Made by a program: the position numbers and the translations under genes
Source of the DNA: Bacteroidetes bacterium GWB2_32_14
GTDB lineage: Bacteria > Bacteroidota > Bacteroidia > Bacteroidales > UBA12077
Assembly: GCA_001768235.1 (NCBI GenBank)
Contig: MENK01000024.1
Coordinates: 84,468-148,467 of the forward strand
DNA: 64,000 bases
Reading direction: 5' to 3'
Notes under the pieces: model-generated
The model's database searches: none
What the model was told of the DNA's origin: nothing
The model's input: only the letters and a program-made list of their open reading frames with translations
In this document: positions 21,802 to 40,516 of the stretch, piece after piece
How positions within the stretch are numbered: the first letter of the stretch is position 1
Layout of the letters: every line of letters begins with the position of its first letter

Positions 21802-22179
21802 ATGAGTGCGAAAAAGAAAATTATAGTGGTTGATGATTCGGAAACAAACCTTGTTCTTTTAGAAGCTATTTTAGAGGATGAAGGATTTATTGTTAAAACA
21901 GCTTTTAGCGTTAAAGAAGCAACTGAATTGTTAAAAGATTATAAGCCAAACTTAATTTTACTGGATTTATTAATGCCAAACGAAAATGGTTTCGATTTAC
22001 TTAAAAAACTAAAGTTAAATTCGAGTTATAAAGATATTCCGGTAATTATTGTTACTGCTTTTGCAAACAGAGAAAACTCCGCTATTGCTTTCGATTTGGG
22101 AGCATTTGATATTATTGAGAAACCAATTGATATACCCTTTTTTCTGGAAAAGGTAAACAAGGCCCTTGCAATTTTTTAA
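21802..22179 (+). CDS. Single-domain response regulator (CheY-like receiver), first gene of the chemosensory cluster
   Basis: IVVDDSE, ILLDLLMP, IVTAF and EKP. Confidence 0.85.
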   Translation: MSAKKKIIVVDDSETNLVLLEAILEDEGFIVKTAFSVKEATELLKDYKPNLILLDLLMPNENGFDLLKKLKLNSSYKDIPVIIVTAFANRENSAIAFDLGAFDIIEKPIDIPFFLEKVNKALAIF

Positions 22180-22195
22180 TCATAATATTTTTAAA

Positions 22196-23992
22196 ATGAC
22201 TGAAAAGGAATTGGAAAATAAAATAAAGGTTAAGGCATTACTTGAAACATATTCTACAAAAGATATATGTAAAATATTTACAACTATCGATAGTAAAATA
22301 TACTCATTGCACGAATGCTCATCCGATGATTTTCTTCGGTTAAATAACGATTTTAAACAATTATATAACCAGTCAAAATTAATTTCGGAAAATGTTGCTG
22401 AAATATTTAATATCCTGAATACAAATAAAAACAAGCTTTTATATAACGAGATTTACACCTATTGTGAGAAAATAATTGAAAACACAAAAACTTTTGATCA
22501 TAACCTGATCGTGATAATCGATTTTTTAAAGGATTTGTCGAATCAATTAAGGTTTGTTTTTTTCCCGGTTAAGAATTATGGCCAAAATTTAATGAGCCTT
22601 AAATACTTAATAGCGAATTTAAATCTTACTGTATCTTATTCAAAAGAAAATAGTGACGCATTAAAAAGCTTTAAAAGAATCGAGGAAAATATAAACGGGT
22701 TGAAATCATTGCTGGAAAAAATACCAAAAATCGTTAATGCTTCCAGGAAAATATCGAGAATAATTACTTCAAATTTCGCACTGGGTAAAGAAACACCAGA
22801 TACGAATATTGAATCCATATTAAATGCAGTAAAGTCAAGTATAGGATTAATTGAAAGGAAATACAAAGCGAATGAAAATAATATCCCGGATATTCGAAAG
22901 AAAACGGATAAATCGGCTGAGAATATTAGTGATATAATTAAAAAATTACAGTATCAGGATATTATTAAGCAAAAAATGGAGCATATTCAGCATACACATA
23001 AAGACCTTATTAATGAACTTTATGAGTTTGAAAATACTTCTGACGAAGAAAAATATATTAACGAAAAAGCAAAGTTTTTCTTGCGCATAAGAGATATTGC
23101 AGGATTACAGGCAGCTCAGCTTATCCATGCAAATAAGGAGTACCAGTCTGCCCTGGAAATAATTATTAATAATTTTATACAAATAGGAGATAATATGAAA
23201 ATTATCTCTCAATTGTGTAATGATATTGTTACGGATAATGAAAATGATGAAGAAAGATTATTTGATGAGATAGTGCAAAATATCAAGCGTTCGGAAGAAT
23301 GCTACCTTAATAAAAACAACCAGAATAAAAAGCTATACAAAGAGCTAAATTCAATAGAATATCAATTAACCCAGTCAGAGAAAAGTTTCGCACTGCTGAA
23401 TGAACTAAATAATGATTTAAACATAAATATTAATCAATATTTTAAGGAAATAGAAAAACTGTCGGAACATGATGAGAATATTAAACAATCTTTAATACAA
23501 TTAAAAAGCCTTTATAAAGATATTCAGCAAAATGGTTTAAAACTGATTGGTTTTAATGGCCTGCTAGCTCCTTTAAAAAAACATGTTCAGAGCCTGATTA
23601 ACGACAAAACCGATACATCATTAAATAAAAATTTTGAAAGAATTGAAAAAGCCGTGAGCCATTTACATTCATTACGCTTTAGCCTTGATAGCAAATTAAA
23701 GGAAAATCAGGATATAAGTAATGGTGTATTAAATGGAATTAAAAAATCAATTTCCGAAATAAAGTATTATGATTTTTTCGAAAAAATAATTGATGAGATA
23801 ATAACAGAATTAAATACAATAAACTATAACCTGAAGATTGATGATGAAGAAATAAGCAGTAAAGAAGAAAATTTAAAGAAACTTAAAAGTTATTATACTA
23901 TGCAAACCGAGCATTTAATTCATGAGCAGGTCGAAAAAGGAGAAAAAGCGGATATAGAAAGCGATGATAATGGCGAAATAGAATTCTTTTAA
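22196..23992 (+). CDS. Large coiled-coil protein of unknown family with a CheZ-like DxxxQ motif and an acidic aromatic C-terminal tail
   Basis: The track ORF starts at a TTG at 22166. The ATG at 22196 (MTEKELENK) is more likely, 16 nt after the receiver stop. The protein is helical and low-complexity throughout. It carries KLQYQDIIKQKMEHI at 22943-22987 and ends ...ADIESDDNGEIEFF. Confidence 0.6.
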   Translation: MTEKELENKIKVKALLETYSTKDICKIFTTIDSKIYSLHECSSDDFLRLNNDFKQLYNQSKLISENVAEIFNILNTNKNKLLYNEIYTYCEKIIENTKTFDHNLIVIIDFLKDLSNQLRFVFFPVKNYGQNLMSLKYLIANLNLTVSYSKENSDALKSFKRIEENINGLKSLLEKIPKIVNASRKISRIITSNFALGKETPDTNIESILNAVKSSIGLIERKYKANENNIPDIRKKTDKSAENISDIIKKLQYQDIIKQKMEHIQHTHKDLINELYEFENTSDEEKYINEKAKFFLRIRDIAGLQAAQLIHANKEYQSALEIIINNFIQIGDNMKIISQLCNDIVTDNENDEERLFDEIVQNIKRSEECYLNKNNQNKKLYKELNSIEYQLTQSEKSFALLNELNNDLNININQYFKEIEKLSEHDENIKQSLIQLKSLYKDIQQNGLKLIGFNGLLAPLKKHVQSLINDKTDTSLNKNFERIEKAVSHLHSLRFSLDSKLKENQDISNGVLNGIKKSISEIKYYDFFEKIIDEIITELNTINYNLKIDDEEISSKEENLKKLKSYYTMQTEHLIHEQVEKGEKADIESDDNGEIEFF

Positions 23993-24009
23993 AAGTAAAA
24001 ACCAACGAT

Positions 24010-24324
24010 ATGAAATCAAAAGAAAAAAATATTCAATTAATTCCTTCGGGCAATACGAAAGTGGTTATTATACTTGAACATGAACTTACCATGTTCACAA
24101 TTGAAAAAATTAAAAGTAAAATAATTGATGCGTTTCAGCAGTATGATTTTATAGATTTAAACCTTAAAAAGGTTCATAACATGGATCTTACATTTGTCCA
24201 GTTATTATACTCCCTAAAGGTGTCCGCGCAAAAGTTGAATAAAAAAATAGTATTTAAGGCAGATATGCCTGATGATTTACGATCGCTTTTTGAAAATTCA
24301 GATTTGAATAAAATATTGGTATAA
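24010..24324 (+). CDS. STAS-domain protein (anti-sigma-factor-antagonist-like)
   Basis: 104 aa with a SpoIIAA-like layout. The ...DLNLKKVHNMDLTFVQLL segment sits where the phosphorylatable loop DxSGVxFMDSSG lies. Recognition is by eye, so confidence is moderate. Confidence 0.55.
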   Translation: MKSKEKNIQLIPSGNTKVVIILEHELTMFTIEKIKSKIIDAFQQYDFIDLNLKKVHNMDLTFVQLLYSLKVSAQKLNKKIVFKADMPDDLRSLFENSDLNKILV

Positions 24325-24344
24325 TAAAGAAAATATCTAAAACT

Positions 24345-24710
24345 ATGAGCAAAGTTATTTTAATTGTTGATGATTCTGAGAGTATCCGGGAAGTGGTAAA
24401 TTTCACATTAGAAAACGAAGGCTATAAAGTACTTATTGGTATTGATGGCAAGGATGCTTTAAAATTCCTTGATGGCAGGCCTATCGATTTAATTATTACC
24501 GATTTACATATGCCGGAAATGGATGGTATCGAATTAATAAAACATATTCGTACCGTTGATGCATATAAGCATATTCCTATCTTATTTCTAACTACAGAAT
24601 CTCAGGTTTCAAAAAAAATGGAAGCCAAAGATGCCGGAGCAACCGGATGGATAATTAAGCCATTTGTCCCCGCGAAATTAATTGAAGCACTTAAAAAAGT
24701 AATACGATGA
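24345..24710 (+). CDS. cheY: Chemotaxis response regulator CheY
   Basis: 121 aa with LIVDDSES, IITDLHMPEMDG, LTTE and IIKPF. Overlaps cheA by 4 nt (ATGA). Confidence 0.9.
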   Translation: MSKVILIVDDSESIREVVNFTLENEGYKVLIGIDGKDALKFLDGRPIDLIITDLHMPEMDGIELIKHIRTVDAYKHIPILFLTTESQVSKKMEAKDAGATGWIIKPFVPAKLIEALKKVIR

Positions 24711-26755: not shown

Positions 26756-26762
26756 ATTAATT

Positions 26763-26768
26763 GGGAGG
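26763..26768 (+). promoter_or_regulatory. Shine-Dalgarno-like GGGAGG 7 nt upstream of the cheW-1 ATG
   Basis: ttGGGAGGtatagctATG. Most other starts in the window lack any purine-rich SD. Confidence 0.35.
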
Positions 26769-26775
26769 TATAGCT

Positions 26776-27237
26776 ATGAAAGAAGAAGCCATGGACAAGA
26801 CTATTTCCTATCTTTCGTTTCATCTCGGAGAAGAAGAATTTGCTGCACATGTTAGTAAGGTGCTTAACATTCTCGAGATGATTAAAATTATTGAAGTACC
26901 AAATGCTCCTGAATATATGAAAGGAGTTATTAATCTGAGAGGTACAGTCCTTCCTGTTGTTGATACACGTGTAAAATTTGGAATGACACCAACAGTTTAT
27001 ACCCCAAATACATGTATTGTGGTCATGGATGTGGAGATTGAAAACGAAATGGTAAAAGTTGGGGCTTTGGTTGATTCTGTTCAGGCAGTTCTCGAGATCG
27101 AAGAATCAATGATTCAACCTCCACCAAGCATTGGAAGTAAATATAAGTCTGAATTTATTTACGGCATGGCAAAGATCGATGATAAGTTTATTATGCTTCT
27201 TGATATGGAAAAAGTTTTTTCGAATGACGAAATCTAA
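26776..27237 (+). CDS. cheW: Chemotaxis coupling protein CheW (copy 1)
   Basis: CheW fold motifs (FAAHV..V..I, GVINLRGTVLPVVD, IVV). The track start is the TTG at 26761. The ATG at 26776, preceded by GGAGG, is preferred. Confidence 0.9.
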   Translation: MKEEAMDKTISYLSFHLGEEEFAAHVSKVLNILEMIKIIEVPNAPEYMKGVINLRGTVLPVVDTRVKFGMTPTVYTPNTCIVVMDVEIENEMVKVGALVDSVQAVLEIEESMIQPPPSIGSKYKSEFIYGMAKIDDKFIMLLDMEKVFSNDEI

Positions 27238-27303
27238 AAACAGGACAATAAAAGAAATAGAAATAAAAACAAACAGATAATTAAAAACTAATAAATTAAA
27301 ACT

Positions 27304-29385
27304 ATGAAATCAATTAACGATTTAAAAATTGGATTAAGGCTTAATTTAATATTAAGTATCCTGATTGTTGTAATTATTACAGCTTTAGGTGTTTATAATT
27401 ATTACACCAATAAGCAAAGAATTATTAACGATGCTGATATAAGGATGAACGAACAATTGGATGATATGGTAAGCATTCTGGATGTTCAGATATCTGAAAA
27501 TCAGAAAAAAGTCAATACTGCACTTCAGGTAGCTTCGCATGTATTTAATACAAGCGGAGATTTAATTTTAGATAGCAGGGAATATATAAACATGGCTGCT
27601 TCAGGACAGGGTTTCCAGATGCAGGATATGAATGTACAACTTTGGAAATTGGGGAATGTTCCTATTCAATTAAACAATGACTTTGTTGATAAAATAGGAG
27701 AATTAACAGGAGCAAATACTTCGGTATTTCAGAAAGTGCAGGGAGGATACGTGCGAATCGCGACAAATGTACTAAACGAATCAGGAAAAAGATCGTTCGG
27801 AACTTTTATGGCAAATAACTCAGATATTGTTCAGAAAATTGAATCTGGCCAAAAATATGAAGGACGTGCCCTGGTATTGAATGTTTGGATGTTAACTGCA
27901 TATGAACCGATAAAGCTAAATGGACAAATAATTGGGATGATTGGTGTTGGAGTTCCCGAAAAAGATCTTGGTAGTTTAAAAAAGATTTTTGACAGTAAAA
28001 TCTACTTTGAGTCGGGATATCCTTTTCTTGTAGCAAAAGATGGTACATTTATTATTCACCCTACATCGGAAGGTCAAAATGCAAGCCAGTTTACATTTTT
28101 TAAACAAATGACAGGAAGTAATCAAAACAGTGGAAAATCAAGGTATCAATGGCCTGAAACAGCAAGTGGACAATGGAAATATCAATATTTTAAATACGTT
28201 CCTAAAATTGATTCTTATGTTGCCGTATCATTTTATGAAAATATTTTATTTAAATATTTAAAAGAAATACGTACATCAATAATTGTAGGGTTAATACTAG
28301 CAATTGTAATTTTTATTATTATTGTTTCGTTAATTTCCACGAATATAGCCAAGGCATTAAATAAGGGAGTTAATTTTGCACAGAAAGTTGCCGATGGGGA
28401 TCTTACAGCAACAGTTGAAATAAAACAACAAGATGAAATAGGGTTGTTGGCTAATGCGCTCAATCGTATGGTTTTACAACTACGTGGTATTGTAGAAAAT
28501 GTCGATTTAAGTGCAGACAACATTGTTTCTGCAAGCCAGCAGATAAGTTCTGGTTCGCAACAATTATCACAAGGAGCTAATGAACAGGCTTCATCAACGG
28601 AAGAAGTATCTTCATCTATGGAAGAAATGGTTTCTAACATTCAGCAAAATACAGATAATTCGCAGCAAACAGAAAAAATATCAATAGAAGCAGCTAATGG
28701 TATAGAAAAAGTTGCTCATGCTTCTCAGGAAAGCCTAAGCTCTATAAGGCAAATTGCGGGCAAAATCAATGTTGTTAACGATATTGCTTTTCAAACGAAT
28801 ATACTGGCTTTAAATGCGGCAGTAGAAGCTGCACGTGCCGGTGAACATGGCAGGGGGTTTGCCGTTGTTGCCGCAGAGGTTAGAAAGCTGGCCGAAAGAA
28901 GTAAAATTGCTGCCGACGAAATAGTTGGTTTATCAGCGCATAGTTTAAAAGTTACCGAAGAAGCCGGAGAACTAATGGCCAAGATAATTCCTGAAATAGG
29001 TAAAACAGCCAAACTGGTACAGGAAATTTCTGCTGCAAGCCTTGAACAAAATTCAGGCGCCGACCAGATAAATAATGCTATTCAGCAATTAAATCAGGTT
29101 ACACAGCAAAATGCTGCTGCATCGGAAGAATTGGCTACCAGTGCCGAAGAACTCGCCAGCCAGGCCGAACAATTGAGAGAGAATATTTCATTCTTTACTA
29201 TTGGCGATAATAAAAAATTAATGAAAAGTAAAAAAGATCATGGGAAATATGATTCCCAAAAGAAAGAAAATAAGGCAGCAAATAGTGTTCATGAACAAAA
29301 ACATGCAAGTTTAAATCGTAATACCGGGTATGACTTTAAGATGCACGATGATAAAACTACTGACGATGATTATGAAAAATTTTAA
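27304..29385 (+). CDS. Methyl-accepting chemotaxis protein with a periplasmic Cache-type (double-Cache-like) sensor, HAMP and signalling domain
   Basis: TM1, a roughly 280-aa periplasmic region ([10 protein letters not shown]...GKRSFGT Cache-like motif), TM2 and HAMP ([13 protein letters not shown]). The conserved hairpin tip is [42 protein letters not shown]. Confidence 0.95.
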
Positions 29386-29427
29386 AGTTATTTATGTTTC
29401 TGAATAATTAAATTAAAAAATATTAAT

Positions 29428-29432
29428 GGAGG
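29428..29432 (+). promoter_or_regulatory. Shine-Dalgarno-like GGAGG 8 nt upstream of the cheW-2 ATG
   Basis: aatGGAGGaataataaATG. Confidence 0.35.
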
Positions 29433-29440
29433 AATAATAA

Positions 29441-30004
29441 ATGAATAAAGATATTCATAATAATAGCAATTCGTACCTTTCATTTCATCTTGGCGAAGAG
29501 GAATTTGCGGCACATGTTGGTAAAGTCCTTAATATACTTGAAATGACAAGGATTACAGAAGTGCCCAAAGCTCCTGAATACATGAAAGGGGTTATTAACC
29601 TGAGAGGCACAGTTTTACCCGTCGTCGATACTCGTATAAAATTCGGAATGTCACCAACAGTTTATACTCCAAACACATGTATTGTTGTCATGGAAGTAGA
29701 AATTGAAAATGATAATGTGCAGGTCGGAGCTTTGGTAGATTCTGTGCAGGCAGTACTTGAAATAGAAGACTCACAAGTACAACCTCCGCCAAGTATTGGA
29801 AGTAAATATAAATCGGAGTTTATTTATGGCATGACCAGGTTTGATGAAAAATTCATTATGTTGCTCGATATGGATAAGGTTTTCTCAAGTGATGATATTC
29901 AATCGCTTAAAGAAAAAACATTTGAAGGCGAACAGGAAATGGGGGCTAATACTGAAACAAATATTAAAACTGTGACCAAAACAAAAACAAAATCAAAAAC
30001 TTGA
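29441..30004 (+). CDS. cheW: Chemotaxis coupling protein CheW (copy 2) with a Lys/Thr-rich C-terminal extension
   Basis: 122 of 144 core residues are identical to copy 1 (my by-eye count). It has an extra tail ...TETNIKTVTKTKTKSKT. Confidence 0.9.
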   Translation: MNKDIHNNSNSYLSFHLGEEEFAAHVGKVLNILEMTRITEVPKAPEYMKGVINLRGTVLPVVDTRIKFGMSPTVYTPNTCIVVMEVEIENDNVQVGALVDSVQAVLEIEDSQVQPPPSIGSKYKSEFIYGMTRFDEKFIMLLDMDKVFSSDDIQSLKEKTFEGEQEMGANTETNIKTVTKTKTKSKT

Positions 30005-30071
30005 TTACAGCTTGATAGTATAGATAAGAAAATGAATCATGTTGGTAATCAGAAAATTATAAAATTGAGAT

Positions 30072-32009
30072 ATGAAAATAAACGATATAAAAATCAGTAA
30101 CAAGTTAAGAATTTCAATATTTTCTCAAGTGGTTTTTATTGCTTTAATCGTCTTCTTCTTTTTTAATATCAATAATAAGTTTAATGAAATTAAAAAGAAT
30201 AAGATTTATGTTTCGGAGAAGATAAATGAAATTCGATCGTTTTCTCTAAACGTAAAAGATTTTATTAATAATGACATGGATTACAATCAGTTGCGTTCGG
30301 TTTACGAATCCATGAGAGCCGGCCTTTCACAGGATGTTTCAATGAATGTTTTTGATGAGATTTGGTCGGACATTGATAAAATTAATGACTTACGTAACCA
30401 AAATCTGGCGATTGAAAACAAAGTTATGGATTTGTGTTCGCAATCAATAAATGCTTCGTCAACTTTTATTATGAGCGTTAGTGCGAAACTTGCCGATGCA
30501 AGGTTAAGCAATTCTGTTTCAAAATTAGAACGAATAGTTATTGGTGGTGCGAATAATAATAATTTGTTTTATGCTGAAATAAAAGTGCTTTTTTATAAAT
30601 TAAAAAATGATATTTCTTTAAAAGAACAATTGCTGACAACACTTAATAGTGGAATTGAGAACGCAACCCAGGACAGGGGGCGTTTAAAAGGAACTCCCTA
30701 TGAATCGCTTGCGGTTACAGCCATTGATGCAAATGTTCAGATAAGAAGCCTTGTTGTTGAGTATGTTTCAAAAGTAGAAACTGAGAATAATCTTAAAAAT
30801 AATATTTTTCAGATTATTGATAAAATGGATAAAGAACTAAACAGCAATGAAACAAAATCAACTTTCGATGGATTTGCCGTGATTAAGAGCCAGATAATTA
30901 CAATTTTTACTCTGATTTTTATTATATCATTCATTCTTATACTGATTTACTATGATTTGGTAAAAGTAGTTGGAAGGTTGATTAATGTAGCTGTCACAAA
31001 CCTCACCAAGATGTCAGAAGGTGAACTCGATCTTAATATTTCAGAAACATTAACAGATAGAAACGATGAATTGGGGTTGTTCTCAAAAAGTTTGAATAAC
31101 CTGATTGTAAAGCTAAAGGATATTATTGATTCCATTTCAACTGCTGCAGAGAGTATTAATTCGGCAAGTCTGCAAATAAGTTCAGGTTCTCAGCAATTAT
31201 CGCAGGGAGCTAATGAACAGGCATCTTCAACCGAAGAAGTATCTTCATCAATGGAAGAGATGGTGTCGAATATTCAACAAAATGCAGATAATGCACAGCA
31301 AACAGAGAAAATTTCTGTTGAAGCTTCAAATGGTATCGGGAATGTTGCAAAAGCAGCTCAGGAAAGCTTGAAATCGATCCGCCAGATAGCTGATAAAATT
31401 TCAGTTGTAAACGATATTGCTTTCCAAACAAATATTTTAGCGCTTAATGCAGCAGTCGAAGCTGCCCGTGCAGGGGAACATGGTAAAGGATTTGCAGTAG
31501 TAGCTGCTGAAGTTAGAAAACTTGCTGAAAGGAGTAAAGTTGCTGCCGACGAGATTGTTGGTTTATCAGCACATACTTTAAAAGTTACCGAAGAAGCAGG
31601 GGAACTAATGGCCAAAATAATCCCTGAAATAGGTAAAACAGCCAAACTGGTACAGGAAATTTCTGCCGCAAGCCTTGAGCAAAATTCAGGCGCCGATCAG
31701 GTTAATAATGCGATACAGCAATTGAATCAAATTACTCAGCAAAACGCTGCAGCTTCTGAAGAATTGGCAACCAGCGCCGAAGAACTTGCCAGCCAGGCAG
31801 AACAATTAAAGGAGAATATATCTTATTTTTCTACCGGGAGCATAAAAAATTATAAAAGTATAAAGAGTAATGCAGCCAAATTGCATGAACAGAAAAAATC
31901 ATTTTCTCTTACTCCTAAGGCAAGTCCCAAAATGAAAATGAATAAACATTCTGGTATTGATATTCATTTGAACGACAGGAATATTGATGATGAATATGTA
32001 AAGTATTAA
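30072..32009 (+). CDS. Methyl-accepting chemotaxis protein with an all-helical periplasmic sensor (4HB/HBM-like), HAMP and signalling domain
   Basis: Two TM segments flank a roughly 240-aa helical region, followed by HAMP ([14 protein letters not shown]). The signalling domain is 203/222 identical to that of the first MCP (by-eye count). Confidence 0.95.
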
Positions 32010-32129: not shown

Positions 32130-32987
32130 ATGGATCCAACATTATTACAACAAATTTTTAATGCAAAAATGACTGACGATGATTTTAATCGCCTGAGCGA
32201 TTTTATATATAAGCAGTCAGGAATAAAAATGCCGTATGTAAAATTAATTATGCTGCAAAGTCGGTTGCAAAAGCGACTGAAGGAATTAAAAATTAGCACG
32301 TATAAAGATTATGTTGATTATGTTTTTAGTGAAGAGGGACAAAAAAACGAAATTATCCACATGCTCGATGTGGTGAGCACGAATAAAACAGATTTTTTCA
32401 GGGAACCTGTACATTTCGATTTTTTAAATACAGATGTTTTACCCAAATTCATGAATAATATTCATTTAAATTATAACTTTAAAGTATGGAGTGCAGGATG
32501 TTCAAGCGGAGAAGAACCATATACCATTGCAATTACCTTACAGGAGTTTAAAAACAGAAATCCAAGATTCGATTATTTTATAACAGCAACAGATATTTCT
32601 TTGCAGATTTTACAACATGCTTCCCTGGCTGTTTACAAGGAAGAAAGAATATCAAATATACCCCTGGAGATTAAAAGAAAATATTTTCTGAGAAGCAAGG
32701 ATCATGAAAAAAAAACGGTAAGGGTTGTTAAAGAATTGAGAAACAAAGTAGCCTATTACAGGCTTAACTTTATGAACGATACCTACAATTTGCCCGACGT
32801 CTTCGATGTTATATTTTGCAGGAATGTCCTTATTTATTTTAATCGTGAAACCCAGGAACAGGTAATTAATAAATTGTGTTTAAAACTAAAAAGCGGGGGA
32901 TATTTATTTATTGGGCATTCCGAATCAATATTGGGCATGAAAGTTCCTTTAGAACAAATAAAACCAACAATTTTCAAACGTATTTAA
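32130..32987 (+). CDS. cheR: Chemotaxis protein methyltransferase CheR
   Basis: TDFFRE, VWSAGCSSGEEPYTIA (SAM motif), IFCRNVLIYF and GGYLFIGHSE. Confidence 0.9.
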   Translation: MDPTLLQQIFNAKMTDDDFNRLSDFIYKQSGIKMPYVKLIMLQSRLQKRLKELKISTYKDYVDYVFSEEGQKNEIIHMLDVVSTNKTDFFREPVHFDFLNTDVLPKFMNNIHLNYNFKVWSAGCSSGEEPYTIAITLQEFKNRNPRFDYFITATDISLQILQHASLAVYKEERISNIPLEIKRKYFLRSKDHEKKTVRVVKELRNKVAYYRLNFMNDTYNLPDVFDVIFCRNVLIYFNRETQEQVINKLCLKLKSGGYLFIGHSESILGMKVPLEQIKPTIFKRI

Positions 32988-32998
32988 AACCTACGAAT

Positions 32999-33916
32999 AT
33001 GACAGATTTAACCGACAAAGAATTAATCGACGAGCTTAAAAAACGTTTTGAACAAAATAAACGGGCACTTGAAGAAGTACATGAACTTAATAATGAGCTT
33101 AAAAACGCTAATTTGAAACTCGAAGAATCAGAAGCCCTGAAAAGCCACTTTATTTCGAATATTACAAACGAAATTATTAATCCTTTTGCATCAATTCTGG
33201 CTTTATCAAAAAATATATTATCTGTAGATAAAGAAAATTGGAAAAAAGTAATTTCAATGATTTCCTTAATATATTCCGAAGCTTTTAACCTCGATTTTCA
33301 GTTGCGGAATATATTTGTTGCAGCAAAACTTGAAGCCGGCGAAATTTATCCCGAAATTTTAAATGTGGATATAAAATACTTAATTGATAGTGTTATTGAA
33401 TCATTTAAGTACGTATCTAAGAAAAAGAAATTAAGCATCAGTTTTAATTTTAACATTCCAACAGAACATAATAAACCGGTTTTCTTTAAATCCGATCCCG
33501 AAAAGCTAAGATTAATATTATCAAATCTTTTAAGCAATGCTGTAAAATTTAGCGCTGATGATAAAAGTATTGAAATTACAGCATCTATGGAAAAGAAAAA
33601 TTTAATAATATCTGTTAAAGATAATGGAACAGGAATATCATTAAAAAACCAGAAAATAATTTTTGACAGGTTTAAAAGGCTCGATTCAGGAATTAACTCA
33701 ATTAACCGTGGACATGGATTAGGCCTTTCAATAAACAAAGCATTACTCGATTTGTTAAACGGAACTATTAAAGTTGAGAGTAGTATTGGCAAAGGAGCTA
33801 ATTTCATAATCTCAATACCCGAAAACGATTCACAAGCCAGTGGGTTTTCATTCGATGGAAACGAGTTGTTTTTTGATGACGAATCCATTTTGAATACTGA
33901 TTCTGAAACATTCTAA
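32999..33916 (+). CDS. Soluble histidine-kinase-fold protein with a degenerate H-box (phospho-acceptor His replaced by Asn) and an intact HATPase domain
   Basis: The ATG at 32999 (MTDLTDKEL) is preferred over the track TTG at 32876, which overlaps cheR by 112 nt. It has a coiled coil, a DHp-like segment ESEALKSHFISNITNEIINPFASI, and N/G1/F/G2 boxes LSNLLSNAVKF, DNGTGI, FDRF, GHGLGLSI. No TM segment or sensor domain. Confidence 0.8.
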   Translation: MTDLTDKELIDELKKRFEQNKRALEEVHELNNELKNANLKLEESEALKSHFISNITNEIINPFASILALSKNILSVDKENWKKVISMISLIYSEAFNLDFQLRNIFVAAKLEAGEIYPEILNVDIKYLIDSVIESFKYVSKKKKLSISFNFNIPTEHNKPVFFKSDPEKLRLILSNLLSNAVKFSADDKSIEITASMEKKNLIISVKDNGTGISLKNQKIIFDRFKRLDSGINSINRGHGLGLSINKALLDLLNGTIKVESSIGKGANFIISIPENDSQASGFSFDGNELFFDDESILNTDSETF

Positions 33917-33927
33917 AAAAAGTTTTA

Positions 33928-34416
33928 ATGGATAACCTTGGGTCACATTTTTTATATCCGGCGGAACTTTATGCAAGTAAAGAGCCATTCCAGATTAATA
34001 CTATTTTAGGTTCATGTGTTGCAGTTTGTTTATGGGACAGAACCTTAAACTATGGAGGAATGTGTCATTACATGTTGCCTTATTGGAATGGAGAAGGTTT
34101 AGCGTCGCCTAAATACGGTAATATTGCAATAGAAAAGCTATTAGAGAAAATGTATTCTTTTGGTTGCAATAAAATGAATATTGTTGCAAAGGTTTTTGGC
34201 GGTGGCGAAGTTATTGAAACAAAATCTCCCCAGTTTCATATTGGTGAAAGAAACATTAAATTAGCACTAGAAGTTTTAGAAGAAAAAAAAATAAGTATTA
34301 TTAGTTCAAGCCTGGGTGGCAAGCAGGGACGAAAAATCATATTTTATACCCATACAGGAGAAGTTAAACAAAGATATGTGCAACGTCAAACAGTAAATCC
34401 TGATAATAAAAACTGA
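33928..34416 (+). CDS. cheD: Chemoreceptor glutamine deamidase CheD
   Basis: ILGSCVAVCLWD (catalytic Cys), GGMCHYMLP (His) and AKVFGGG. Confidence 0.85.
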   Translation: MDNLGSHFLYPAELYASKEPFQINTILGSCVAVCLWDRTLNYGGMCHYMLPYWNGEGLASPKYGNIAIEKLLEKMYSFGCNKMNIVAKVFGGGEVIETKSPQFHIGERNIKLALEVLEEKKISIISSSLGGKQGRKIIFYTHTGEVKQRYVQRQTVNPDNKN

Positions 34417-34476: not shown

Positions 34477-35571
<1,095 letters not shown>

Positions 35572-35793: not shown

Positions 35794-38070
35794 ATGGGTG
35801 AACGTAATTCTCAAGGCATTGTATTTAAATATACTGTTAGTGGTTTTATTGTTGGATTAGTTACAGTTTTATTTGTAATTATTGTTGATTTTTTAATTAA
35901 AAAAATCAGTTTCTCCGAATTAATCGAGATACATAAGTCAAACCCGGTTTATATAATTATTGATTTGTCTCCGCTTGTTCTTGCCTTTTATGCTTATCTG
36001 GTTAGTAAAAAATATGCCGATACTTCATCGGTTCTACATGCATCATTAAAAAATGAATTTGACAAAACCCAAAAAATATTCAGGTTTGTTGAAAAAATCA
36101 GGCTTGGTAATATCGATGCTGATTATAAAGTTCAGGATTCTGACGATGTGCTTGGCCAATCAATACTCGATTTACGGGATAATTTAAAGAAAAACAAAAT
36201 AGAAGAGGATAACAGGCGCAGGGAAGATAAGCAAAGAAACTGGATAGCCGAAGGACTGGCTATGTTCGGAGAAATATTACGTAAAGATACCGATAACATC
36301 CAGGAGCTTTCTTATAACCTGATTAGCGAACTTGTAAAATATATTAAAGTTAACCAGGGAGCATTCTTTATTATTAATGATGAATCTTTATCCGATAAGC
36401 ATCTTGAAATGACTGCCTGCTATGCTTATGAACGCAGAAAATTCGCTGATAAAAGGGTTGAGTGGGGCGAAGGAATTCTTGGAGCATGCATTTTAGAACA
36501 GGAAACAATTTATATGACCGATGTTCCTAAAAACTATGTAAATATTACATCAGGTCTTGGGCAGGCAACTCCGAAATTTTTATTGGTTGTTCCGTTAAAA
36601 ATTAATAACGAGGTTTACGGTGTCCTTGAAATAGGTTCCTTTCAGCAAATTGAAAAATACGTTATTGAATTTATCGAAAAAGTTGCAGAAAGCGTTGCAT
36701 CAACAATTTCAAATGTTAAAATAAATACGCGGACAGCAAAGCTTCTTAAAGAATCTCAATTGCAGGCAGAAACTCTTGCATCTCAGGAAGAACAAATGAG
36801 GCAGAACATGGAAGAACTTCAGGCCACCCAGGAAGAAGCTGCCCGCCAAAGTGAGAAGTTTATTACTTTTACAAATGCCGTGAATCACACTCTTATTCGT
36901 GCCGAATATGATTCCAATGGAACCCTTCTTTATGCAAATACTAGATTCCTTAAAAAATTGGGTTACGAAAGAAACTCTGAGGTTGAAGGTCAGCACATCT
37001 CTTTGTTTATTAATGAAAAAGACAGGGAGTGGTTCGACGAATTATGGGAAGGTTTGGCCAAAGGAGGTAAACATTTCGAAGGCGACATGAAACATGTTAC
37101 AAAACAAGGCCGCGATTTGTGGACTATGTCAACATACACGTGCATGAGAAATGATGATGGAAGTGTAGAAAAAATCCTGTTCCTTGCAATTGATACTACC
37201 GACCAGAAAAAACAAAGCCTCGATTACCAGGGGCAAATTCAGGCTTTGAATAAGTCAACAATTAAAGTAGAGTTTTTACCTACTGGTGATTTACTCGAAT
37301 GCAATCAGAAATTTATTGATTTAATGGAGTTTTCGTTATATGAACTTAAAGAAAAAACAATTTTCGATTTTGTTGATAAATCTGAATTAAACAAATTACG
37401 TGAATTCTGGGATAAAATTATACTGGGTGAAACATGGGAAGGTACGTTACGACAAAGAACAAAAGAAGATAAAGATATATGGGTAAGAGTTTCTCTTTCG
37501 GCTGTTAAAGATATGTACGATGACATTTCAAAAATTGTATATATTGGCAACGATGAAACCAAAGAGAAATTAATGGAAATTGAATCGAGAAAACAGACCG
37601 AACTACTCAAAAAACAAGAAGAAGAGTTGCGTATATCACGATTAGATTTAAGAGCTCAACTTAAACAGGCAAAAGACGAAATACGACAACAATTTAAAGA
37701 AATTGAAAGATCTAAAATACTTCATGAAAGAACATTGGAAGGAGCTCTCGATTCAATTATTACTATAAATCATAATGGAATTATTATATTTTTTAATAAA
37801 GCTGCCGAAGAGCTTTGGAATGTAAAAAAAGACTCCGTATTGGGGCGAAATGTTTCAAAACTTTTCCCTGATTATGATTTTAGCGATGAGTTTATTAATT
37901 CATTTATTGATTTGAACGAAGATAAGGTAATTGGAGAGCGTAAAGAAGTTGTTATTAAAGATGCAAAAGGAAATGAAAAATCTGTACTTTTCCTTATATC
38001 ACAGGCAAAAGTGGATGATGAAACAACATATACAGCATTTATACAGAATATTTCTGTAGATTTATTTTAG
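35794..38070 (+). CDS. Membrane-anchored GAF plus multi-PAS sensor protein with no recognisable output domain
   Basis: Two N-terminal TM helices and a GAF-like region (VNQGAFFIIND...LLVVPLKINNEVYGVLEIGSF). A coiled-coil linker follows (QEEQMRQNMEELQATQEEA). There are then at least three PAS-like repeats, and the ORF ends inside or just after the last PAS. Confidence 0.85.
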   Translation: MGERNSQGIVFKYTVSGFIVGLVTVLFVIIVDFLIKKISFSELIEIHKSNPVYIIIDLSPLVLAFYAYLVSKKYADTSSVLHASLKNEFDKTQKIFRFVEKIRLGNIDADYKVQDSDDVLGQSILDLRDNLKKNKIEEDNRRREDKQRNWIAEGLAMFGEILRKDTDNIQELSYNLISELVKYIKVNQGAFFIINDESLSDKHLEMTACYAYERRKFADKRVEWGEGILGACILEQETIYMTDVPKNYVNITSGLGQATPKFLLVVPLKINNEVYGVLEIGSFQQIEKYVIEFIEKVAESVASTISNVKINTRTAKLLKESQLQAETLASQEEQMRQNMEELQATQEEAARQSEKFITFTNAVNHTLIRAEYDSNGTLLYANTRFLKKLGYERNSEVEGQHISLFINEKDREWFDELWEGLAKGGKHFEGDMKHVTKQGRDLWTMSTYTCMRNDDGSVEKILFLAIDTTDQKKQSLDYQGQIQALNKSTIKVEFLPTGDLLECNQKFIDLMEFSLYELKEKTIFDFVDKSELNKLREFWDKIILGETWEGTLRQRTKEDKDIWVRVSLSAVKDMYDDISKIVYIGNDETKEKLMEIESRKQTELLKKQEEELRISRLDLRAQLKQAKDEIRQQFKEIERSKILHERTLEGALDSIITINHNGIIIFFNKAAEELWNVKKDSVLGRNVSKLFPDYDFSDEFINSFIDLNEDKVIGERKEVVIKDAKGNEKSVLFLISQAKVDDETTYTAFIQNISVDLF

Positions 38071-38152
38071 AACACTTTATTTACGTTGCAAACATATTTT
38101 CTTACCACTGAATCGTACATTCGTATTTTACATATTGATATAATTATTTCTA

Positions 38153-40516
38153 TTGATAACTAATTCAGGAAATAAAAAAGGAAAAACAAAATATAGTTTC
38201 GTTAAGAACTTTTTTGTAACTGTAGTTTTTCTTTTGTTTAGCATGTTCATTTGTGCTCAACAGAATAAAACCGATAGTTTACTTTTGTTATTCCAATCAG
38301 CAAAAGATAATAGAAAGGTTGATCTTTTAAATGAACTATCAATTTCATCCCGTAATATTTCGTTAAATAAATCACTCGATTATGCCAACCAGGCAATTGA
38401 TTTAGCCCTGAAAATGAACTATAAATTTGGCGAAGCCGATGGGTATAAAAATAAAGGAGTAGTTTACTTTATTCAAAATAAAAATACCGAAGCTTTAGCT
38501 GAATATGAAAAATCATTACATCTTTTCAAGCAGGAAAAGAATAGCGCTAAAGTATCTGCCCTTATGAATAACATAGCTAACATATATGTCAGGCAGGGCG
38601 ATTATGAAAAAGCATTAACAAATTATTTAGAAGCAGCAAAAATAAATATCGAAACAAATAAACAGGAAAGTGTCGCGAATATTTATAATAACATTGGCAT
38701 GGTTTATAATAAATGGGGTAAAAACGAGCAGGCTTATGAATATTATAATAAATCGCTTGATATTAATAAAAAACTAAATAATAAATTAGGAATTGCTGCA
38801 GCATTAAATAACATTGCTTTGATTTTAAAGAATTGGGGACAGTTCGAGAAATCACTCGGGTATTTTCAGGAAGCTGTAAAAACCAACGAAGAAATTGGCG
38901 ATAAGATTGGCATTGCAAGATGTTTAAGTAATATGGCCCTTGTATATTTAAGCCTGGGGCAAGACAAAAAAGCTTTGGAACTCAATTTACAATCTCTCGA
39001 GTTAAAAATGGAGCTTGAAGATAATCAGGGAGTTTTATTTTCATATTCTGGTATTGGAGATATTTATTACAATACCGGGGAGTTTGAAAAAGCACTCGAA
39101 TTTTACGAAAAGTCTTTAAATACAGCAATTCAATCGAACAGTAAAGAATATATCATTTTATCAAATACGGATATCGGGGATACTTATTTCATGGTTAAGA
39201 ACTATTTAAAAGCCCTTGAATATTATGGAGATGCAATTCATATAGCCGAAAAAATTAAAAGCAACCAGAACATAAGTGTTATACGGAATAAAATAGGTAA
39301 CTGTCAATTCGCGATTAATCAATATAATAGTGCCGGGCAAAATTATTTATACAGTTTGAACCTGGCAAGAGAACTTAACCTGGTAAGTTTAATTGAACAA
39401 AACGCTTACGATTTATCTGTTCTGTATGCCAAAACAAAAAATTTTGAAAAAGCATATCAATATCAGACAGAATATATCGAAATTCATACAAAACTTTTTA
39501 ATGAAAATACACAAACCAAGATATCTGAGATACAAACAAAATACGAAACCGAAAAAAAAGAGAAAGAAATTATTGAGTTAAAATCGAAGCAGGTTAAAGT
39601 GAAACAGCAAAATCTTTATTATTATACAGGATCAATACTTGTTATTTTTATCATCATCATTATATTTCTGCAAAACAGGTACCTGATAAAGAAAAAATCG
39701 TTAAATATGCTCGATCAAAAAAATATCTTGCTCGAAAAAGCAAACCAGGACTTAATTCTTGCTAAAGAAAAGGCACAAGAATCGGATCGTTTAAAAACAG
39801 CATTTTTAACGAATATTTCTCACGAGATTCGAACTCCCATGAATGCAATTATTGGTTTTTCCGAATATATAACCGATAATGATATAGCCGAAGATGAGAA
39901 GAAAGAACTGTTTAATTTAATTCGTATAAACAGCAATGTTTTGTTAAGTTTAATTGATGATATTCTTGATGTTTCCCTTATTGAAACAGGCCAATTAAAA
40001 ATTAAAAATGAAAAAGTATCATTGGAGAAATTAATGGAAGAATCTTACCTCCTGGTTAAAGAAAACAAAAAGCTTAAACAATCGCGTATTGATTTTACAT
40101 ATTATATTGACAATCAATTAAAAGGAGCCTGTGTTATTTCAGATCCATTCAGGTTAAAGCAAATATTGGTTAATTTACTCGATAATTCAATAAAATTCAC
40201 CGATTCCGGACAAATATCCTTTAGTTGTAAGCTTATTGATAATGAGTCAGGTAAAATTATCCAGTTTAGCATTGATGATACAGGAATAGGCATTGATAAA
40301 AAATATCACGAAATGATTTTTGAACGTTTTTTTAAAGTTCCTTCAAACAATACAGTTATTTATCGCGGTTCAGGAATCGGGTTATCAATTGCTAAAAGCC
40401 TTATAAACCAGATGAAAGGGCAGGTATGGCTTCGTTCTGAACCCAATGTTGGTACATCATTTATTTTTACAATTCCTTATATTGAAAGTTCGCAAGCGAA
40501 TGAAGTATTGAATTAA
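38153..40516 (+). CDS. TPR-repeat sensor histidine kinase (extracytoplasmic TPR array, one TM, HisKA, HATPase)
   Basis: TTG start and signal-like N-terminus. About 9 TPR-like repeats (A..Y...L.I....G) precede a TM segment (ILVIFIIIIIFL). The H-box TAFLTNISHEIRTPMNAI is canonical, with NLLDNSIKF, DTGIGI and GSGIGLSI boxes. Confidence 0.85.
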   Translation: MITNSGNKKGKTKYSFVKNFFVTVVFLLFSMFICAQQNKTDSLLLLFQSAKDNRKVDLLNELSISSRNISLNKSLDYANQAIDLALKMNYKFGEADGYKNKGVVYFIQNKNTEALAEYEKSLHLFKQEKNSAKVSALMNNIANIYVRQGDYEKALTNYLEAAKINIETNKQESVANIYNNIGMVYNKWGKNEQAYEYYNKSLDINKKLNNKLGIAAALNNIALILKNWGQFEKSLGYFQEAVKTNEEIGDKIGIARCLSNMALVYLSLGQDKKALELNLQSLELKMELEDNQGVLFSYSGIGDIYYNTGEFEKALEFYEKSLNTAIQSNSKEYIILSNTDIGDTYFMVKNYLKALEYYGDAIHIAEKIKSNQNISVIRNKIGNCQFAINQYNSAGQNYLYSLNLARELNLVSLIEQNAYDLSVLYAKTKNFEKAYQYQTEYIEIHTKLFNENTQTKISEIQTKYETEKKEKEIIELKSKQVKVKQQNLYYYTGSILVIFIIIIIFLQNRYLIKKKSLNMLDQKNILLEKANQDLILAKEKAQESDRLKTAFLTNISHEIRTPMNAIIGFSEYITDNDIAEDEKKELFNLIRINSNVLLSLIDDILDVSLIETGQLKIKNEKVSLEKLMEESYLLVKENKKLKQSRIDFTYYIDNQLKGACVISDPFRLKQILVNLLDNSIKFTDSGQISFSCKLIDNESGKIIQFSIDDTGIGIDKKYHEMIFERFFKVPSNNTVIYRGSGIGLSIAKSLINQMKGQVWLRSEPNVGTSFIFTIPYIESSQANEVLN

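Follow-up and report, generated by a model that had tools for sequence, protein, structure and literature searches.

A predicted F8-class chemosensory operon with a conserved His-less kinase homologue beside cheD in a groundwater Bacteroidales bacterium

Introduction

Which class of chemosensory system is carried by a groundwater Bacteroidales bacterium, what are its accessory proteins likely to do, and where does its signal go? These questions are raised by a chemosensory operon located whole on the forward strand of a 64-kb stretch of DNA (the window, meaning the entire stretch analyzed), downstream of a divergent pair of genes for a Crp-family regulator and a receiver (REC). The original prediction, made from the sequence, described a complete Che-type cluster with non-canonical accessory proteins, and placed it among the systems with alternative cellular functions (ACF). 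To our knowledge, the behavior of gliding, non-flagellated Bacteroidota in chemical gradients is poorly understood. The rest of the window is occupied by genes of redox and nucleotide metabolism and by a polysaccharide locus.

Results

The gene run is a complete chemosensory operon

Every domain assignment made earlier for the window proteins was confirmed by Pfam, and in the same order. The core of the operon, all on the forward strand, comprises CheY (24345..24710; Response_reg, 2.3e-29), CheA with the domains P1, P3, P4 and P5 (24707..26755; Hpt, H-kinase_dim, HATPase_c and CheW), two CheW copies with a mutual identity of 80% (26761..27237, 2.4e-35, and 29441..30004, 7.7e-38), the chemoreceptors MCP1 (27304..29385) and MCP2 (30072..32009; MCPsignal, 6.1e-34), the methyltransferase CheR (32130..32987; CheR, 3e-61, and CheR_N) and CheB, with a receiver and a methylesterase domain (34495..35571; CheB_methylest, 4.8e-70, and Response_reg). 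The start of CheB at 34495 was corrected by an independent gene call. The 4-nt ATGA overlap reported between cheY and cheA was present.

An identical gene order was found by synteny comparison in at least 13 other Bacteroidales loci, with a CheY identity across Bacteroidales loci of 77-88%. Since this order recurs in 13 independent loci of the Bacteroidales, it reflects more than chance, and the gene run is a real, intact and complete chemotaxis-type signaling operon. The methylation motifs quoted in the original prediction were found in both MCPs and thus CheR, CheB and CheD have plausible substrates, as it had proposed. The Bacteroidota background that it had suggested was also supported, as the relatives were Bacteroidales MAGs: among the 120 CheA matches listed, all were at least 59% identical and almost all of the named ones came from Bacteroidales or other Bacteroidota MAGs.

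The receptors and CheA point to the F8 class

An alignment with Tsr, a 36H receptor, revealed exactly one gap of seven residues per arm, symmetrically placed, in the window receptor. The signaling domain of MCP2 was 87% identical to that of MCP1 and aligned with it without gaps. Gap-free alignment to the window signaling domain was obtained for 64 receptors encoded beside CheA relatives (both window MCPs and 62 others), and the 36H control, E. coli Tap, showed 14 gap positions in the same alignment. The heptad class of both window MCPs is therefore 34H. MCP1 carries a Cache3-Cache2 sensor and a HAMP domain, and MCP2 a helical periplasmic sensor without a family match (Pfam).

The CheA phospho-acceptor motif is HSLKG, and no receiver domain was detected in this protein by Pfam; a CheA-receiver hybrid is the typical architecture of ACF CheA proteins. 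In a neighbor-joining tree without bootstrap, the window CheA grouped with the 34H-linked CheAs of many phyla, including that of Rhizobium, and apart from the 36H-linked F7 proteins of Vibrio and E. coli. The C-terminal tails of MCP1 (DYEKF) and MCP2 (EYVKY) fit the x[F/Y]xx[F/Y] pentapeptide, which is specific to 34H receptors (PMC2577667). The beta-subdomain loop of CheR has the length found in the pentapeptide-dependent CheR of Salmonella, three residues more than in B. subtilis CheR; its glycines are not conserved.

Receptors of the 34H type have been assigned to the F8 flagellar-type class (PMC9321776, PMC11253619, PMC7184735, bioRxiv 10.1101/2022.05.07.491037), and 40H receptors to the ACF/Wsp system of P. 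syringae (PMC11253619). Judged by receptor length, gene order and the unbootstrapped tree, the locus is predicted to be an F8-class chemosensory operon, a class that has already been catalogued. F8 is the sister class of F7 of E. coli. The ACF class, deduced earlier from the STAS domain and the extra kinases, was rejected in view of the 34H receptors and their pentapeptide, the CheA without receiver and its 34H-linked clade, and the stand-alone CheY. A flagellar (F-class) cluster was one half of what the original prediction had named as evidence against itself, and this is the kind of cluster predicted here; the other half, flagella encoded in the genome, is improbable on prior grounds.

The accessory genes at the head of the operon turned out to be less unusual than had been thought. 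The STAS gene and the gene of about 600 codons preceding it occur throughout the class, including flagellated lineages such as Ignavibacteria, and on sequence comparison the head consisting of an MCP-derived protein, STAS, CheY and CheA is a signature of the class across phyla.

Bacteroidales-specific genes and a candidate operator

The first gene of the operon encodes a single-domain receiver, REC1 (21802..22179, forward strand; Response_reg, 2.5e-26), which immediately precedes the MCP-derived gene in all 13 Bacteroidales loci and rarely does so elsewhere. On the reverse strand, a Crp/Fnr-family regulator (20920..21606; cNMP_binding, 3.8e-17, and HTH_Crp_2, 1.5e-12), restricted to the Bacteroidales versions of the cluster, is co-transcribed with another single-domain receiver, REC0 (20529..20909; Response_reg, 1.9e-25). 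REC0 has the DD/D/T/K phospho-acceptor residues and is conserved in position in Bacteroidales (L001-L015), in the Chlorobiota locus L016 and in L082.

Between the divergent genes lies the palindrome GGTGATATAAATCATC (21671..21686), of the Crp type GTGA-N6-TCAC, a probable operator according to motif conservation. The best match to GGTGAT-N4-ATCACC fell within the orthologous intergenic region in all 12 cases; its distance from the Crp start was about 60-75 bp in ten of them and greater in L003 and L010. In ten regions, 11-12 of the 12 specified bases were matched and none of 1000 shuffles reached the score; the shuffles that did so were 1 of 1000 for L015 and 63 of 1000 for L013. The palindrome is unique in the window, except for one site with one mismatch within cheR. 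The divergent regulator may bind this palindrome and thereby control the expression of the operon.

At the other end, a membrane sensor with one GAF and three PAS domains and no output domain (35794..38070, forward strand; GAF_2 and PAS) follows cheB in L001, L003, L005, L007, L010, L012, L013 and L017, and is the conserved last gene in Bacteroidales. As far as the loci compared indicate, REC1, the GAF-PAS sensor and the divergent Crp regulator and receiver with their putative palindromic operator are Bacteroidales-specific additions.

Two kinases identified by Pfam flank the system: a TPR-HisKA-HATPase kinase (38153..40516, forward strand) and a 5TMR-LYT/PAS hybrid histidine kinase (18058..20298, reverse strand). 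The former is missing from the interval that separates the GAF-PAS gene from the 5'-nucleotidase or phosphatase genes in L001, L003, L010 and L012, and in L082, a syntenic genome of 4.6 Mb, the latter does not occur between REC0 and the M1 peptidase. Because they are missing from orthologous loci, both are neighbors and not conserved parts, and the earlier suggestion of cross-talk through them was not supported.

A conserved kinase homologue without the phospho-acceptor histidine is linked to CheD

The gene between cheR and cheD encodes a HisKA-type protein with DHp and CA regions (32999..33916, forward strand). An independent call placed its start at ATG 32999, giving 305 aa, instead of the GTG at 32876 overlapping cheR that had been proposed. 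Only HATPase_c was matched by Pfam, and alignment with HK853 covered the full length (E 1e-28), with an Asn on His260. The histidine is replaced by Asn in all 18 aligned sequences (the window protein and 17 orthologues, including that of Geobacter), the helix contains no alternative conserved His in this alignment, and both the ExxN phosphatase motif and the ATP-binding boxes (N, G1, F, G2) have been preserved. The original description as a kinase fold without His was thus right about the residue and is extended by the DHp helix found besides the ATPase domain. Because the phospho-acceptor is Asn and no other His is conserved, the protein qualifies as a homologue of kinases but not as a histidine kinase; both parts of its database label, "HAMP domain-containing sensor histidine kinase", are wrong.

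Identity within Bacteroidales is 65-83%. The gene occurs in about 20 of 83 comparison loci, only in Geobacter among the proteobacterial ones, and wherever present it is followed by cheD. The window CheD (33928..34416, forward strand; CheD, 2.6e-27) has the catalytic GSC...H motif and belongs to a kinase-linked subfamily, being 51-81% identical to CheDs next to the kinase homologue versus 28-43% to unlinked ones; both types are found in Geobacter. In the Cytophagales loci with the kinase-CheD pair, CheY and CheB are the sole receivers of the cluster. This conserved kinase look-alike beside cheD appears to be undescribed, and a search of the accessible literature agreed with the original prediction that the accessory genes had not been functionally described.

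A protein of this kind would be incapable of autophosphorylation, while it keeps the receiver-docking DHp helix and the Asn at H+4 used in HisKA phosphatase activity. In HisKA proteins, Thr or Asn at H+4 is required for that activity; CrdS H371A is kinase-negative and retains most of its phosphatase activity, and PleC H610A loses both activities (PMC3510030). Given PleC H610A, lack of the histidine does not guarantee a phosphatase-positive protein. The role of the homologue may be to dephosphorylate CheY~P, as a dedicated phosphatase, or to sense the phosphorylated state of CheY, in either case in concert with its own CheD. Such coupling would resemble the CheC-CheD pair of Bacillus, where a CheY~P phosphatase is coupled to the receptor deamidase (PMC3513319). 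A pure phosphatase role leaves the intact ATP-binding boxes unexplained, and they may mean that the protein phosphorylates something else.

The STAS protein is a candidate CheA adaptor

One possible substrate is the STAS-only protein (24010..24324, forward strand; STAS, 5.3e-6, above the cut-off), the ORF of which immediately precedes cheY-cheA in 76 of 83 comparison loci. Its phospho-site position (D[LI][ST]F) is occupied by Ser or Thr in 14 of 15 orthologues. In L024, L027, L056, L046 and L054, no STAS was detected by tblastn and only weak STAS-HMM matches were obtained. The His-less protein might phosphorylate this residue as RsbW does with RsbV, and STAS would then sequester or release a regulator, so that the Che array controls transcription. 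The retained Ser/Thr, the N, G1, F and G2 boxes kept despite the lost His, and the presence of both genes in one Bacteroidales operon favor this partner switching. However, the kinase homologue derives from the HisKA type, has a DHp helix and is not of the RsbW/SpoIIAB (HATPase_c_2) type, its HATPase_c_2 score of 17 bits being below the cut-off; its constant neighbor is CheD, and it does not co-vary with STAS, which occurs in 76 of the comparison loci against about 20 for the homologue and was not detected by tblastn in the five loci named. The window proteins scanned contained no SpoIIE/PP2C domain. Partner switching is therefore an improbable reading.

In position, the protein corresponds to CheS. 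The STAS-only CheS belongs to the flagellar che operon of alpha-proteobacteria, and in Sinorhizobium meliloti and Agrobacterium fabrum it binds CheA and speeds the dephosphorylation of CheY1~P (PMC12654446). The window STAS would likewise be a CheA adaptor, tuning phosphotransfer to the receivers or their dephosphorylation, and would not act as an anti-sigma antagonist.

The helical protein derives from chemoreceptors

The gene following REC1 lies in the ORF 22166-23992, with a probable start at ATG 22196, and encodes a soluble, all-helical protein of 598 aa (22196..23992, forward strand). Neither Pfam nor NCBIfam gave a match, and none was obtained with Pfam for 24 Bacteroidales members; the AlphaFold model (pLDDT 79.6) is helical throughout. 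The family comprises 3660 representatives, and in about 50 loci from many phyla a member gene precedes STAS-cheY-cheA. Of ten distant members examined, five scored above the Pfam MCPsignal cut-off; distant members retain the hairpin-tip motif, lack transmembrane segments and have their genes within che clusters. Because these five carry MCPsignal and the tip, the window protein is a derived relative of MCPs. It was ruled out as an MCP proper, as it has no MCPsignal match and the tip motif is absent, as in the other Bacteroidales copies. The motifs Q..D...Q..EH, LQAAQL and YTM..E..H and the C-terminal DIEFF tail are retained and conserved across phyla. In the Bacteroidales lineage the protein has lost the CheA/CheW-binding tip, and it is probably a scaffold or decoy acting through its conserved N-terminal hairpin and C-terminal tail.

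A CheZ-like CheY~P phosphatase on a receptor scaffold, with catalysis by the pair D255-x3-Q259 and CheY docking by the C-terminal ELF/EFF peptide, was judged slightly less probable again than partner switching. Residues Q252, D255, Q259, E262 and H263 show little or no variation across phyla, QYQDIIKQ resembles CheZ DFQDLTGQ, which contains the catalytic residues D143 and Q147, and this CheZ helix is the sole region aligned by hhalign. The extreme C-terminus is conserved, as in the CheY-binding tail of CheZ, and CheZ, CheC and CheX are missing from F8 clusters (loci compared; PMC2577667). Nevertheless, hhalign against CheZ was far from significant (probability 0.4%, E 0.16), searches of PDB, Pfam and NCBIfam gave no CheZ match and Foldseek came back empty. 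A four-residue helix motif may be due to chance or have another role; with only D-x3-Q in common, the protein was not accepted as a CheZ homologue.

The output is probably non-flagellar

As the original prediction stated, no flagellar, pilus or gliding genes were found in the 64-kb window, and the output is not visible there. Homologous clusters occur in genera of Cytophagales and Prolixibacteraceae, which we take to be described as non-flagellated. Flagella are predicted for just 0.7% of Bacteroidota species clusters (PMC11095265), and the output is therefore presumably gliding or another surface behavior, or gene expression, encoded outside the window. Where F8-type 34H systems have been tested in flagellated species, they do not play the main part in chemotaxis (P. 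syringae, PMC11253619; R. leguminosarum Che2, PMC7617929). Ordinary flagellar chemotaxis, with flagella encoded elsewhere and CheY~P acting on FliM, would agree with the formally flagellar nature of F8, with the dependence of flagellar motility in R. sphaeroides on a related cluster (cited in PMC2577667) and with the flagellated sister Ignavibacteria (PMC3362086), but the rarity of flagella in the phylum, the lineages sharing the cluster and the gene content of the window make it very unlikely.

Discussion

The best overall explanation, held with slightly better than even confidence, is an F8 chemosensory operon whose accessory proteins have the roles proposed above. The two 34H receptors, each with its own kind of sensor, are connected via a pair of CheW proteins to a CheA of the five-domain type, which would phosphorylate CheY, CheB and probably REC1. 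CheR, CheB and CheD form the adaptation set, the receptor pentapeptide fitting the length of the CheR loop. A more specific reading can be offered only tentatively: the flagellar-type array descended within the Bacteroidota-Ignavibacteria-Chlorobi group, persisted once flagella had been lost and was rewired to a non-flagellar output, its signal being terminated by the His-less HisKA protein as a CheD-coupled CheY~P phosphatase, which would be an enzyme of a kind not recognized before and a functional analogue of CheC on a kinase fold.

A complete Che system widely conserved in Bacteroidales offers a genetic handle on the responses of gliding Bacteroidota to gradients. F8 is among the least characterized Che classes, and its STAS gene and receptor-derived helical protein are class-wide; the invariant polar motifs and C-terminal tail of the latter are targets in tractable hosts, among them Geobacter, Pseudomonas syringae and Rhizobium. 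If it works as suggested, the pairing of the His-less kinase with CheD would represent a novel means of ending or gating CheY signaling.

Compared with known systems, the full DHp and CA fold with a replaced His is shared with DivL (Tyr), RetS and CrdS H371A, the first two of which were among the PDB matches of the window protein; NtrB H139N is another kinase mutant without the phospho-acceptor. Unlike these, the window protein has a natural His-to-Asn change fixed across phyla, and is a sensor-less protein of 305 aa in a che operon, tied to CheD. In the CheC-CheD systems of Bacillus subtilis and Thermotoga, as here, CheD stands beside, and co-evolves with, a partner plausibly acting on a phosphorylated receiver, and CheZ is lacking in both; the window partner is a HisKA/HATPase protein instead of a CheC fold. 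Soluble cytoplasmic chemoreceptors are like the distant members of the helical family (MCPsignal with tip, no transmembrane segment, gene in a che cluster), but the window protein has neither a detectable MCPsignal domain nor the tip, and ordinary MCPs lack its family-specific motifs.

The likeness of the window STAS to CheS, which belongs to a different Che class, is one of position and domain only: both are small STAS-only proteins immediately upstream of cheY-cheA, in operons with more than one receiver. The window protein keeps a phosphorylatable Ser/Thr not obviously needed by a CheS-like adaptor, and the S. meliloti-type operon has cheT and a second cheY after cheB, neither of which is present in the window operon. 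The closest systems are the F8 clusters of P. syringae pv. tomato (cluster II), R. leguminosarum (Che2) and Geobacter ("E. coli-like Type 2") (PMC11253619, PMC7617929, PMC2577667), which share with the window in-cluster 34H receptors, the x[F/Y]xx[F/Y] pentapeptide with a matching CheR, and the order cheY-cheA-cheW-mcp-cheR-(cheD)-cheB with extra uncharacterized genes. The window operon differs from them in belonging to a phylum almost devoid of flagella, in the tip-less MCP-derived head protein, in the Bacteroidales additions (REC1, GAF-PAS and the divergent Crp and REC pair with its putative operator) and, except for Geobacter, in the His-less kinase homologue placed between cheR and cheD.

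Gene Content and Conservation of the che Cluster

The gene run was checked by an ORF listing and Pfam scans of the window, and the order and positions given in the original prediction were borne out. The + strand encodes a receiver (REC1), a protein of about 600 aa without Pfam hit, STAS, CheY, CheA, CheW and a Cache3-Cache2 MCP, followed by CheW, a second MCP, CheR, a protein hit by HATPase_c only, CheD, CheB, a membrane GAF-PAS protein and a TPR histidine kinase. Crp, a receiver and a hybrid kinase are encoded on the divergent strand. The 4-nt ATGA overlap of the cheY stop with the cheA start is present, as are the predicted consensus methylation motifs in both receptors. CheB starts at 34495 and the 600-aa protein (598 aa; 22196..23992, +) probably at 22196. 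For the kinase-fold gene, the longest ORF extends to a GTG at 32876 within cheR, but this extension (32876-32998) is an ORF-calling artefact; the gene starts at ATG 32999, as in the databases, and encodes 305 aa (32999..33916, +). Rfam and tRNA scans of the window returned nothing, and sigma-70 promoter and terminator scans, not informative for Bacteroidota, stayed at background level.

At least 120 relatives of the window CheA were found (59-80% identity), those with a name coming almost all from Bacteroidales, Bacteroidota or Marinilabiliales MAGs, and the exact sequence is contained in a groundwater metagenome. Eighty loci around CheA relatives in species-representative genomes were compared. 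The same block recurs across the Bacteroidales loci and on a circular 4.6-Mb Bacteroidales MAG contig (ENA ERZ21831104 ctg97523c): REC and Crp on the - strand, then REC, the 600-aa protein, STAS, CheY, CheA, CheW, 0-3 MCPs, CheR, the kinase-fold protein, CheD, CheB and GAF-PAS. The 4.6-Mb genome also has flanking genes in common with the window. The TPR kinase and the hybrid kinase are missing from the orthologous Bacteroidales loci and from the 4.6-Mb contig, and were therefore rejected as components and regarded as neighbors only. In the 4.6-Mb contig (L082, 17356-22046), cheB was not found after cheD; at this place, the close relative has a stand-alone receiver, a cheW, a CZB-domain MCP and a hybrid kinase.

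The cheW-mcp unit is tandemly duplicated in the window (26761-32009). Identity is 80% between the CheW copies and 87% between the signaling domains, whereas the sensors are wholly different, Cache3-Cache2 in one receptor and an unassigned helical domain in the other. Related loci have 0 to 3 MCPs at this site.

Two other loci of the window were also annotated. A polysaccharide or O-antigen-type biosynthesis locus with a low GC content of 21-28% (46893-63357, - strand) contains genes for a UDP-GlcNAc 2-epimerase, dehydratases, a Wzy-like polymerase, glycosyltransferases, a flippase, a DegT aminotransferase, two Bac_transf proteins and a PglD-like acetyltransferase, together with an 866-aa protein without Pfam hit. 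At 6155-12757, NuoE-like and NuoF-like genes, a 1247-aa GltD-type/molybdopterin (formate-dehydrogenase-like) fusion and then rubrerythrin look like a soluble NAD(P)H-linked formate dehydrogenase or hydrogenase-type complex; this gene set is syntenic in the 4.6-Mb relative.

Receptors and CheA Place the Cluster Near Class F8

When aligned with Tsr (36H), the window receptor shows exactly one 7-residue gap per arm, symmetric about the hairpin, and it was therefore assigned to the 34H heptad class. Sixty-four receptors encoded beside CheA relatives, from all phyla sampled, align without gaps over about 240 residues, compared with 14 gap positions for the 36H control E. coli Tap. The receptor tails DYEKF (29368-29385) and EYVKY (31992-32009) match x[F/Y]xx[F/Y], the 34H-specific C-terminal pentapeptide (PMC2577667), and the beta-subdomain loop of CheR has the length found in the pentapeptide-dependent Salmonella CheR. 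In a neighbor-joining tree rooted on E. coli CheA, the window CheA is nested in a 34H-linked clade, one member of which comes from a Rhizobium che2-like cluster; outside this clade, beside E. coli CheA, is the CheA of a Vibrio with a 36H neighboring receptor. By Pfam, the window CheA is without a receiver domain. Receptors of the 34H class have been assigned to F8, sister class of F7 (PMC9321776; PMC11253619; PMC7184735). In P. syringae, F8 arrays have a height of about 20 nm. Taken together, these features are strong, if indirect, indications of an F8-like cluster, and the ACF-type class originally proposed is unsupported because of the 34H receptors, their tails, the CheR loop, the CheA tree and the receiver-less CheA.

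STAS and the 600-aa Protein Are Widespread Accessory Components

HMMs built from the Bacteroidales orthologues were searched against all ORFs of the loci to locate accessory genes. Of the 83 comparison loci, 76 have a STAS ORF directly 5' of cheY-cheA, and STAS is also present in a minimal Chondrinema plasmid cluster and in the Rhizobium locus. In alpha-proteobacteria, the STAS-only protein at this position is CheS, a CheA-binding protein that makes CheY1~P lose its phosphate faster (PMC12654446). The family of the 600-aa protein comprises 3660 representatives at E values up to 1e-3, and about 50 loci, from Desulfobacterota, Nitrospirota, Geobacter, Ignavibacteria, Kuenenia and other groups, have a member of it encoded 5' of STAS. 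Both proteins, considered unusual in the original prediction, thus recur widely. Moreover, the Figure 1B legend of PMC9239204 lists symbols for a STAS-only gene ("S"), a histidine kinase gene ("K") and hypothetical proteins (dot), for gene orders covering classes F3, F7, F8, F9 and F14; as far as this legend goes, it suggests that such accessory genes are already recorded at class level.

By the MCPsignal matches of its family, the loss of the hairpin tip and the motifs retained, the 600-aa protein is a degenerate, soluble chemoreceptor derivative. Among ten distant family members tested, eight matched Pfam MCPsignal, five of them above the cut-off (best 59.8 bits). The hairpin tip, recognizable in distant members (LIALNA..KAA..G.EG..LGVLAEAI), is lost in the window protein as well as in its relatives from Bacteroidales and Chlorobiota, and Q[FY][HQ]D..xQ..EH, LQAAQL and YTM..E..H are kept in all members of the family. 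A direct comparison of the Bacteroidales family profile with an MCP alignment gave no signal, so the link to MCPs is transitive, via the distant members. A fold search against PDB with the AlphaFold model retrieved only generic long-helix proteins (TM < 0.25). A relationship to CheZ was tested because QYQDIIKQ resembles the CheZ active-site helix: hhalign aligned the protein with E. coli CheZ precisely at this helix, yet the match was insignificant (probability 0.4%), and CheZ was not among the matches in PDB profile, Pfam and NCBIfam searches. CheZ homology was rejected; the likeness is at motif level only.

The extreme C-terminus of the family, G[DE]N[VI]ELF, reads DIEFF in the window protein. 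Acidic/aromatic C-terminal tails are present in three kinds of operon proteins: the MCPs, the MCP-derived protein (GEIEFF, 23972-23992; GDNVELF in other phyla) and the His-less kinase described below (GNELFF...DSETF, 33800-33916). The three kinds of tail may all dock at one site on CheR, CheB or CheY.

A His-less Kinase Paired With CheD

The kinase-fold protein aligns with HK853 over its full length (E 1e-28). Since its FISNITNEIINP aligns with FIANISHELRTP of HK853, Asn takes the place of the phospho-acceptor His260, and this substitution was found in 18 of 18 aligned sequences from Bacteroidales, Cytophagales, Vicingaceae, Chlorobiota and Geobacter. Conservation extends to the N, G1, F and G2 boxes, the H+1 Glu and the H+4 Asn; with identities of 65-83%, the family is strongly constrained. 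A His located one heptad upstream in this kinase homologue was rejected as a substitute phospho-acceptor because it is not conserved. Database names, where given, are sensor histidine kinase, mostly "HAMP domain-containing", and are misleading, since the family is without HAMP domain, sensor or phospho-acceptor His.

In every locus with downstream sequence, cheD follows the kinase gene. The CheDs linked to the kinase are 51-81% identical to the window CheD, compared with 28-43% for CheDs not adjoining such a kinase, and both kinds occur in Geobacter clusters. Two Geobacteraceae MAG loci carry two cheD genes (L046, about 12.2-16.5 kb; L054, about 14.0-18.5 kb): the canonical copy follows cheR, and the other is paired with a receiver and the His-less kinase, so the kinase-CheD pair is a separate module. 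In the Cytophagales clusters with this pair, the only receivers are CheY and CheB.

Phosphatase activity of HisKA proteins needs an H+4 Thr/Asn; in CrdS, H371A abolished kinase activity with little reduction of the phosphatase, and in PleC, H610A abolished both (PMC3510030). The reading preferred here is that the His-less kinase would be a kinase-dead protein binding a phosphorylated receiver, most likely a CheY~P phosphatase working with its own CheD; CheC of Bacillus, which works with CheD, serves as the model for this pairing (PMC3513319). The intact ATP site is left without explanation by the phosphatase reading, and for this reason phosphorylation of STAS by the His-less kinase was kept as an alternative, STAS itself retaining its Ser/Thr. 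This alternative is weakened, however, since the kinase is not of RsbW type, genes for PP2C or a sigma factor are not present, and STAS does not co-vary with the kinase, whereas CheD does.

Crp-Family Regulator and Bacteroidales-Specific Additions

The divergent Crp and receiver pair was found in this Bacteroidales clade only. All 13 Bacteroidales loci have REC1 directly 5' of the MCP-derived gene, a position in which it is rare in other groups, and the GAF-PAS protein is encoded 3' of cheB in eight loci. The last PAS of this protein (37729-38070) resembles those of DosP and FixL (NCBIfam, E 1e-20 and 2e-12), and the protein is without an output domain. A heme-binding role of this PAS was rejected, as no His was seen by eye at the heme-ligand position.

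Between the Crp-family gene and the che operon lies the palindrome GGTGATATAAATCATC (21671-21686), with a weaker copy at 21648-21663. Its consensus, GGTGAT-N4-ATCA[CT]C, is of the Crp type (GTGA-N6-TCAC), and each of the 12 orthologous intergenic regions contains it, in ten cases some 60-75 bp away from the start of Crp and in L003 and L010 at a greater distance. In 10 of the 12 loci, 11-12 of the 12 specified bases are matched and none of 1000 shuffles reached the score; the values were 1/1000 in L015 and 63/1000 in L013. This conservation in the shared intergenic region points to transcriptional control of the che operon by the Crp-family protein via a predicted operator. Such control feeds into the system and says nothing about its output. 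The palindrome is essentially unique in the window. A copy with one mismatch, GGCGATTAAAATCATC on the - strand (32178-32193), lies about 50 bp inside cheR and could be due to chance or be an internal regulatory site.

Output and Relation to Known Systems

No motility genes were detected within the 64-kb window, and the predicted share of flagellated species clusters in Bacteroidota is only 0.7% (PMC11095265). Where flagellated hosts have been tested, the main chemotaxis pathway is a different one, and F8-type or 34H-linked systems act on other traits (PMC11253619; PMC7617929). Related clusters are also present in cultured Cytophagales and Prolixibacteraceae, for example Sunxiuqinia. From these observations and the CheA tree we infer that the output would be non-flagellar. 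In the CheA tree, Bacteroidota form one subclade beside Ignavibacteria, a group with a flagellated cultured member (PMC3362086); this placement fits a system that was inherited within the FCB group and kept when flagella were lost.

The literature search on che genes in Bacteroidota yielded nothing specific. The original prediction was right in considering the cluster real, complete, uncharacterized and probably non-flagellar, but not in its class nor in the unusualness of the STAS and helical proteins. What is new are lineage-specific elaborations, foremost the His-less kinase/CheD pair, alongside the tip-less MCP derivative and the Crp operator. The core is of a known kind; the F8-like cluster belongs with the Geobacter "E. 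coli-like Type 2" clusters, P. syringae cluster II and R. leguminosarum Che2.
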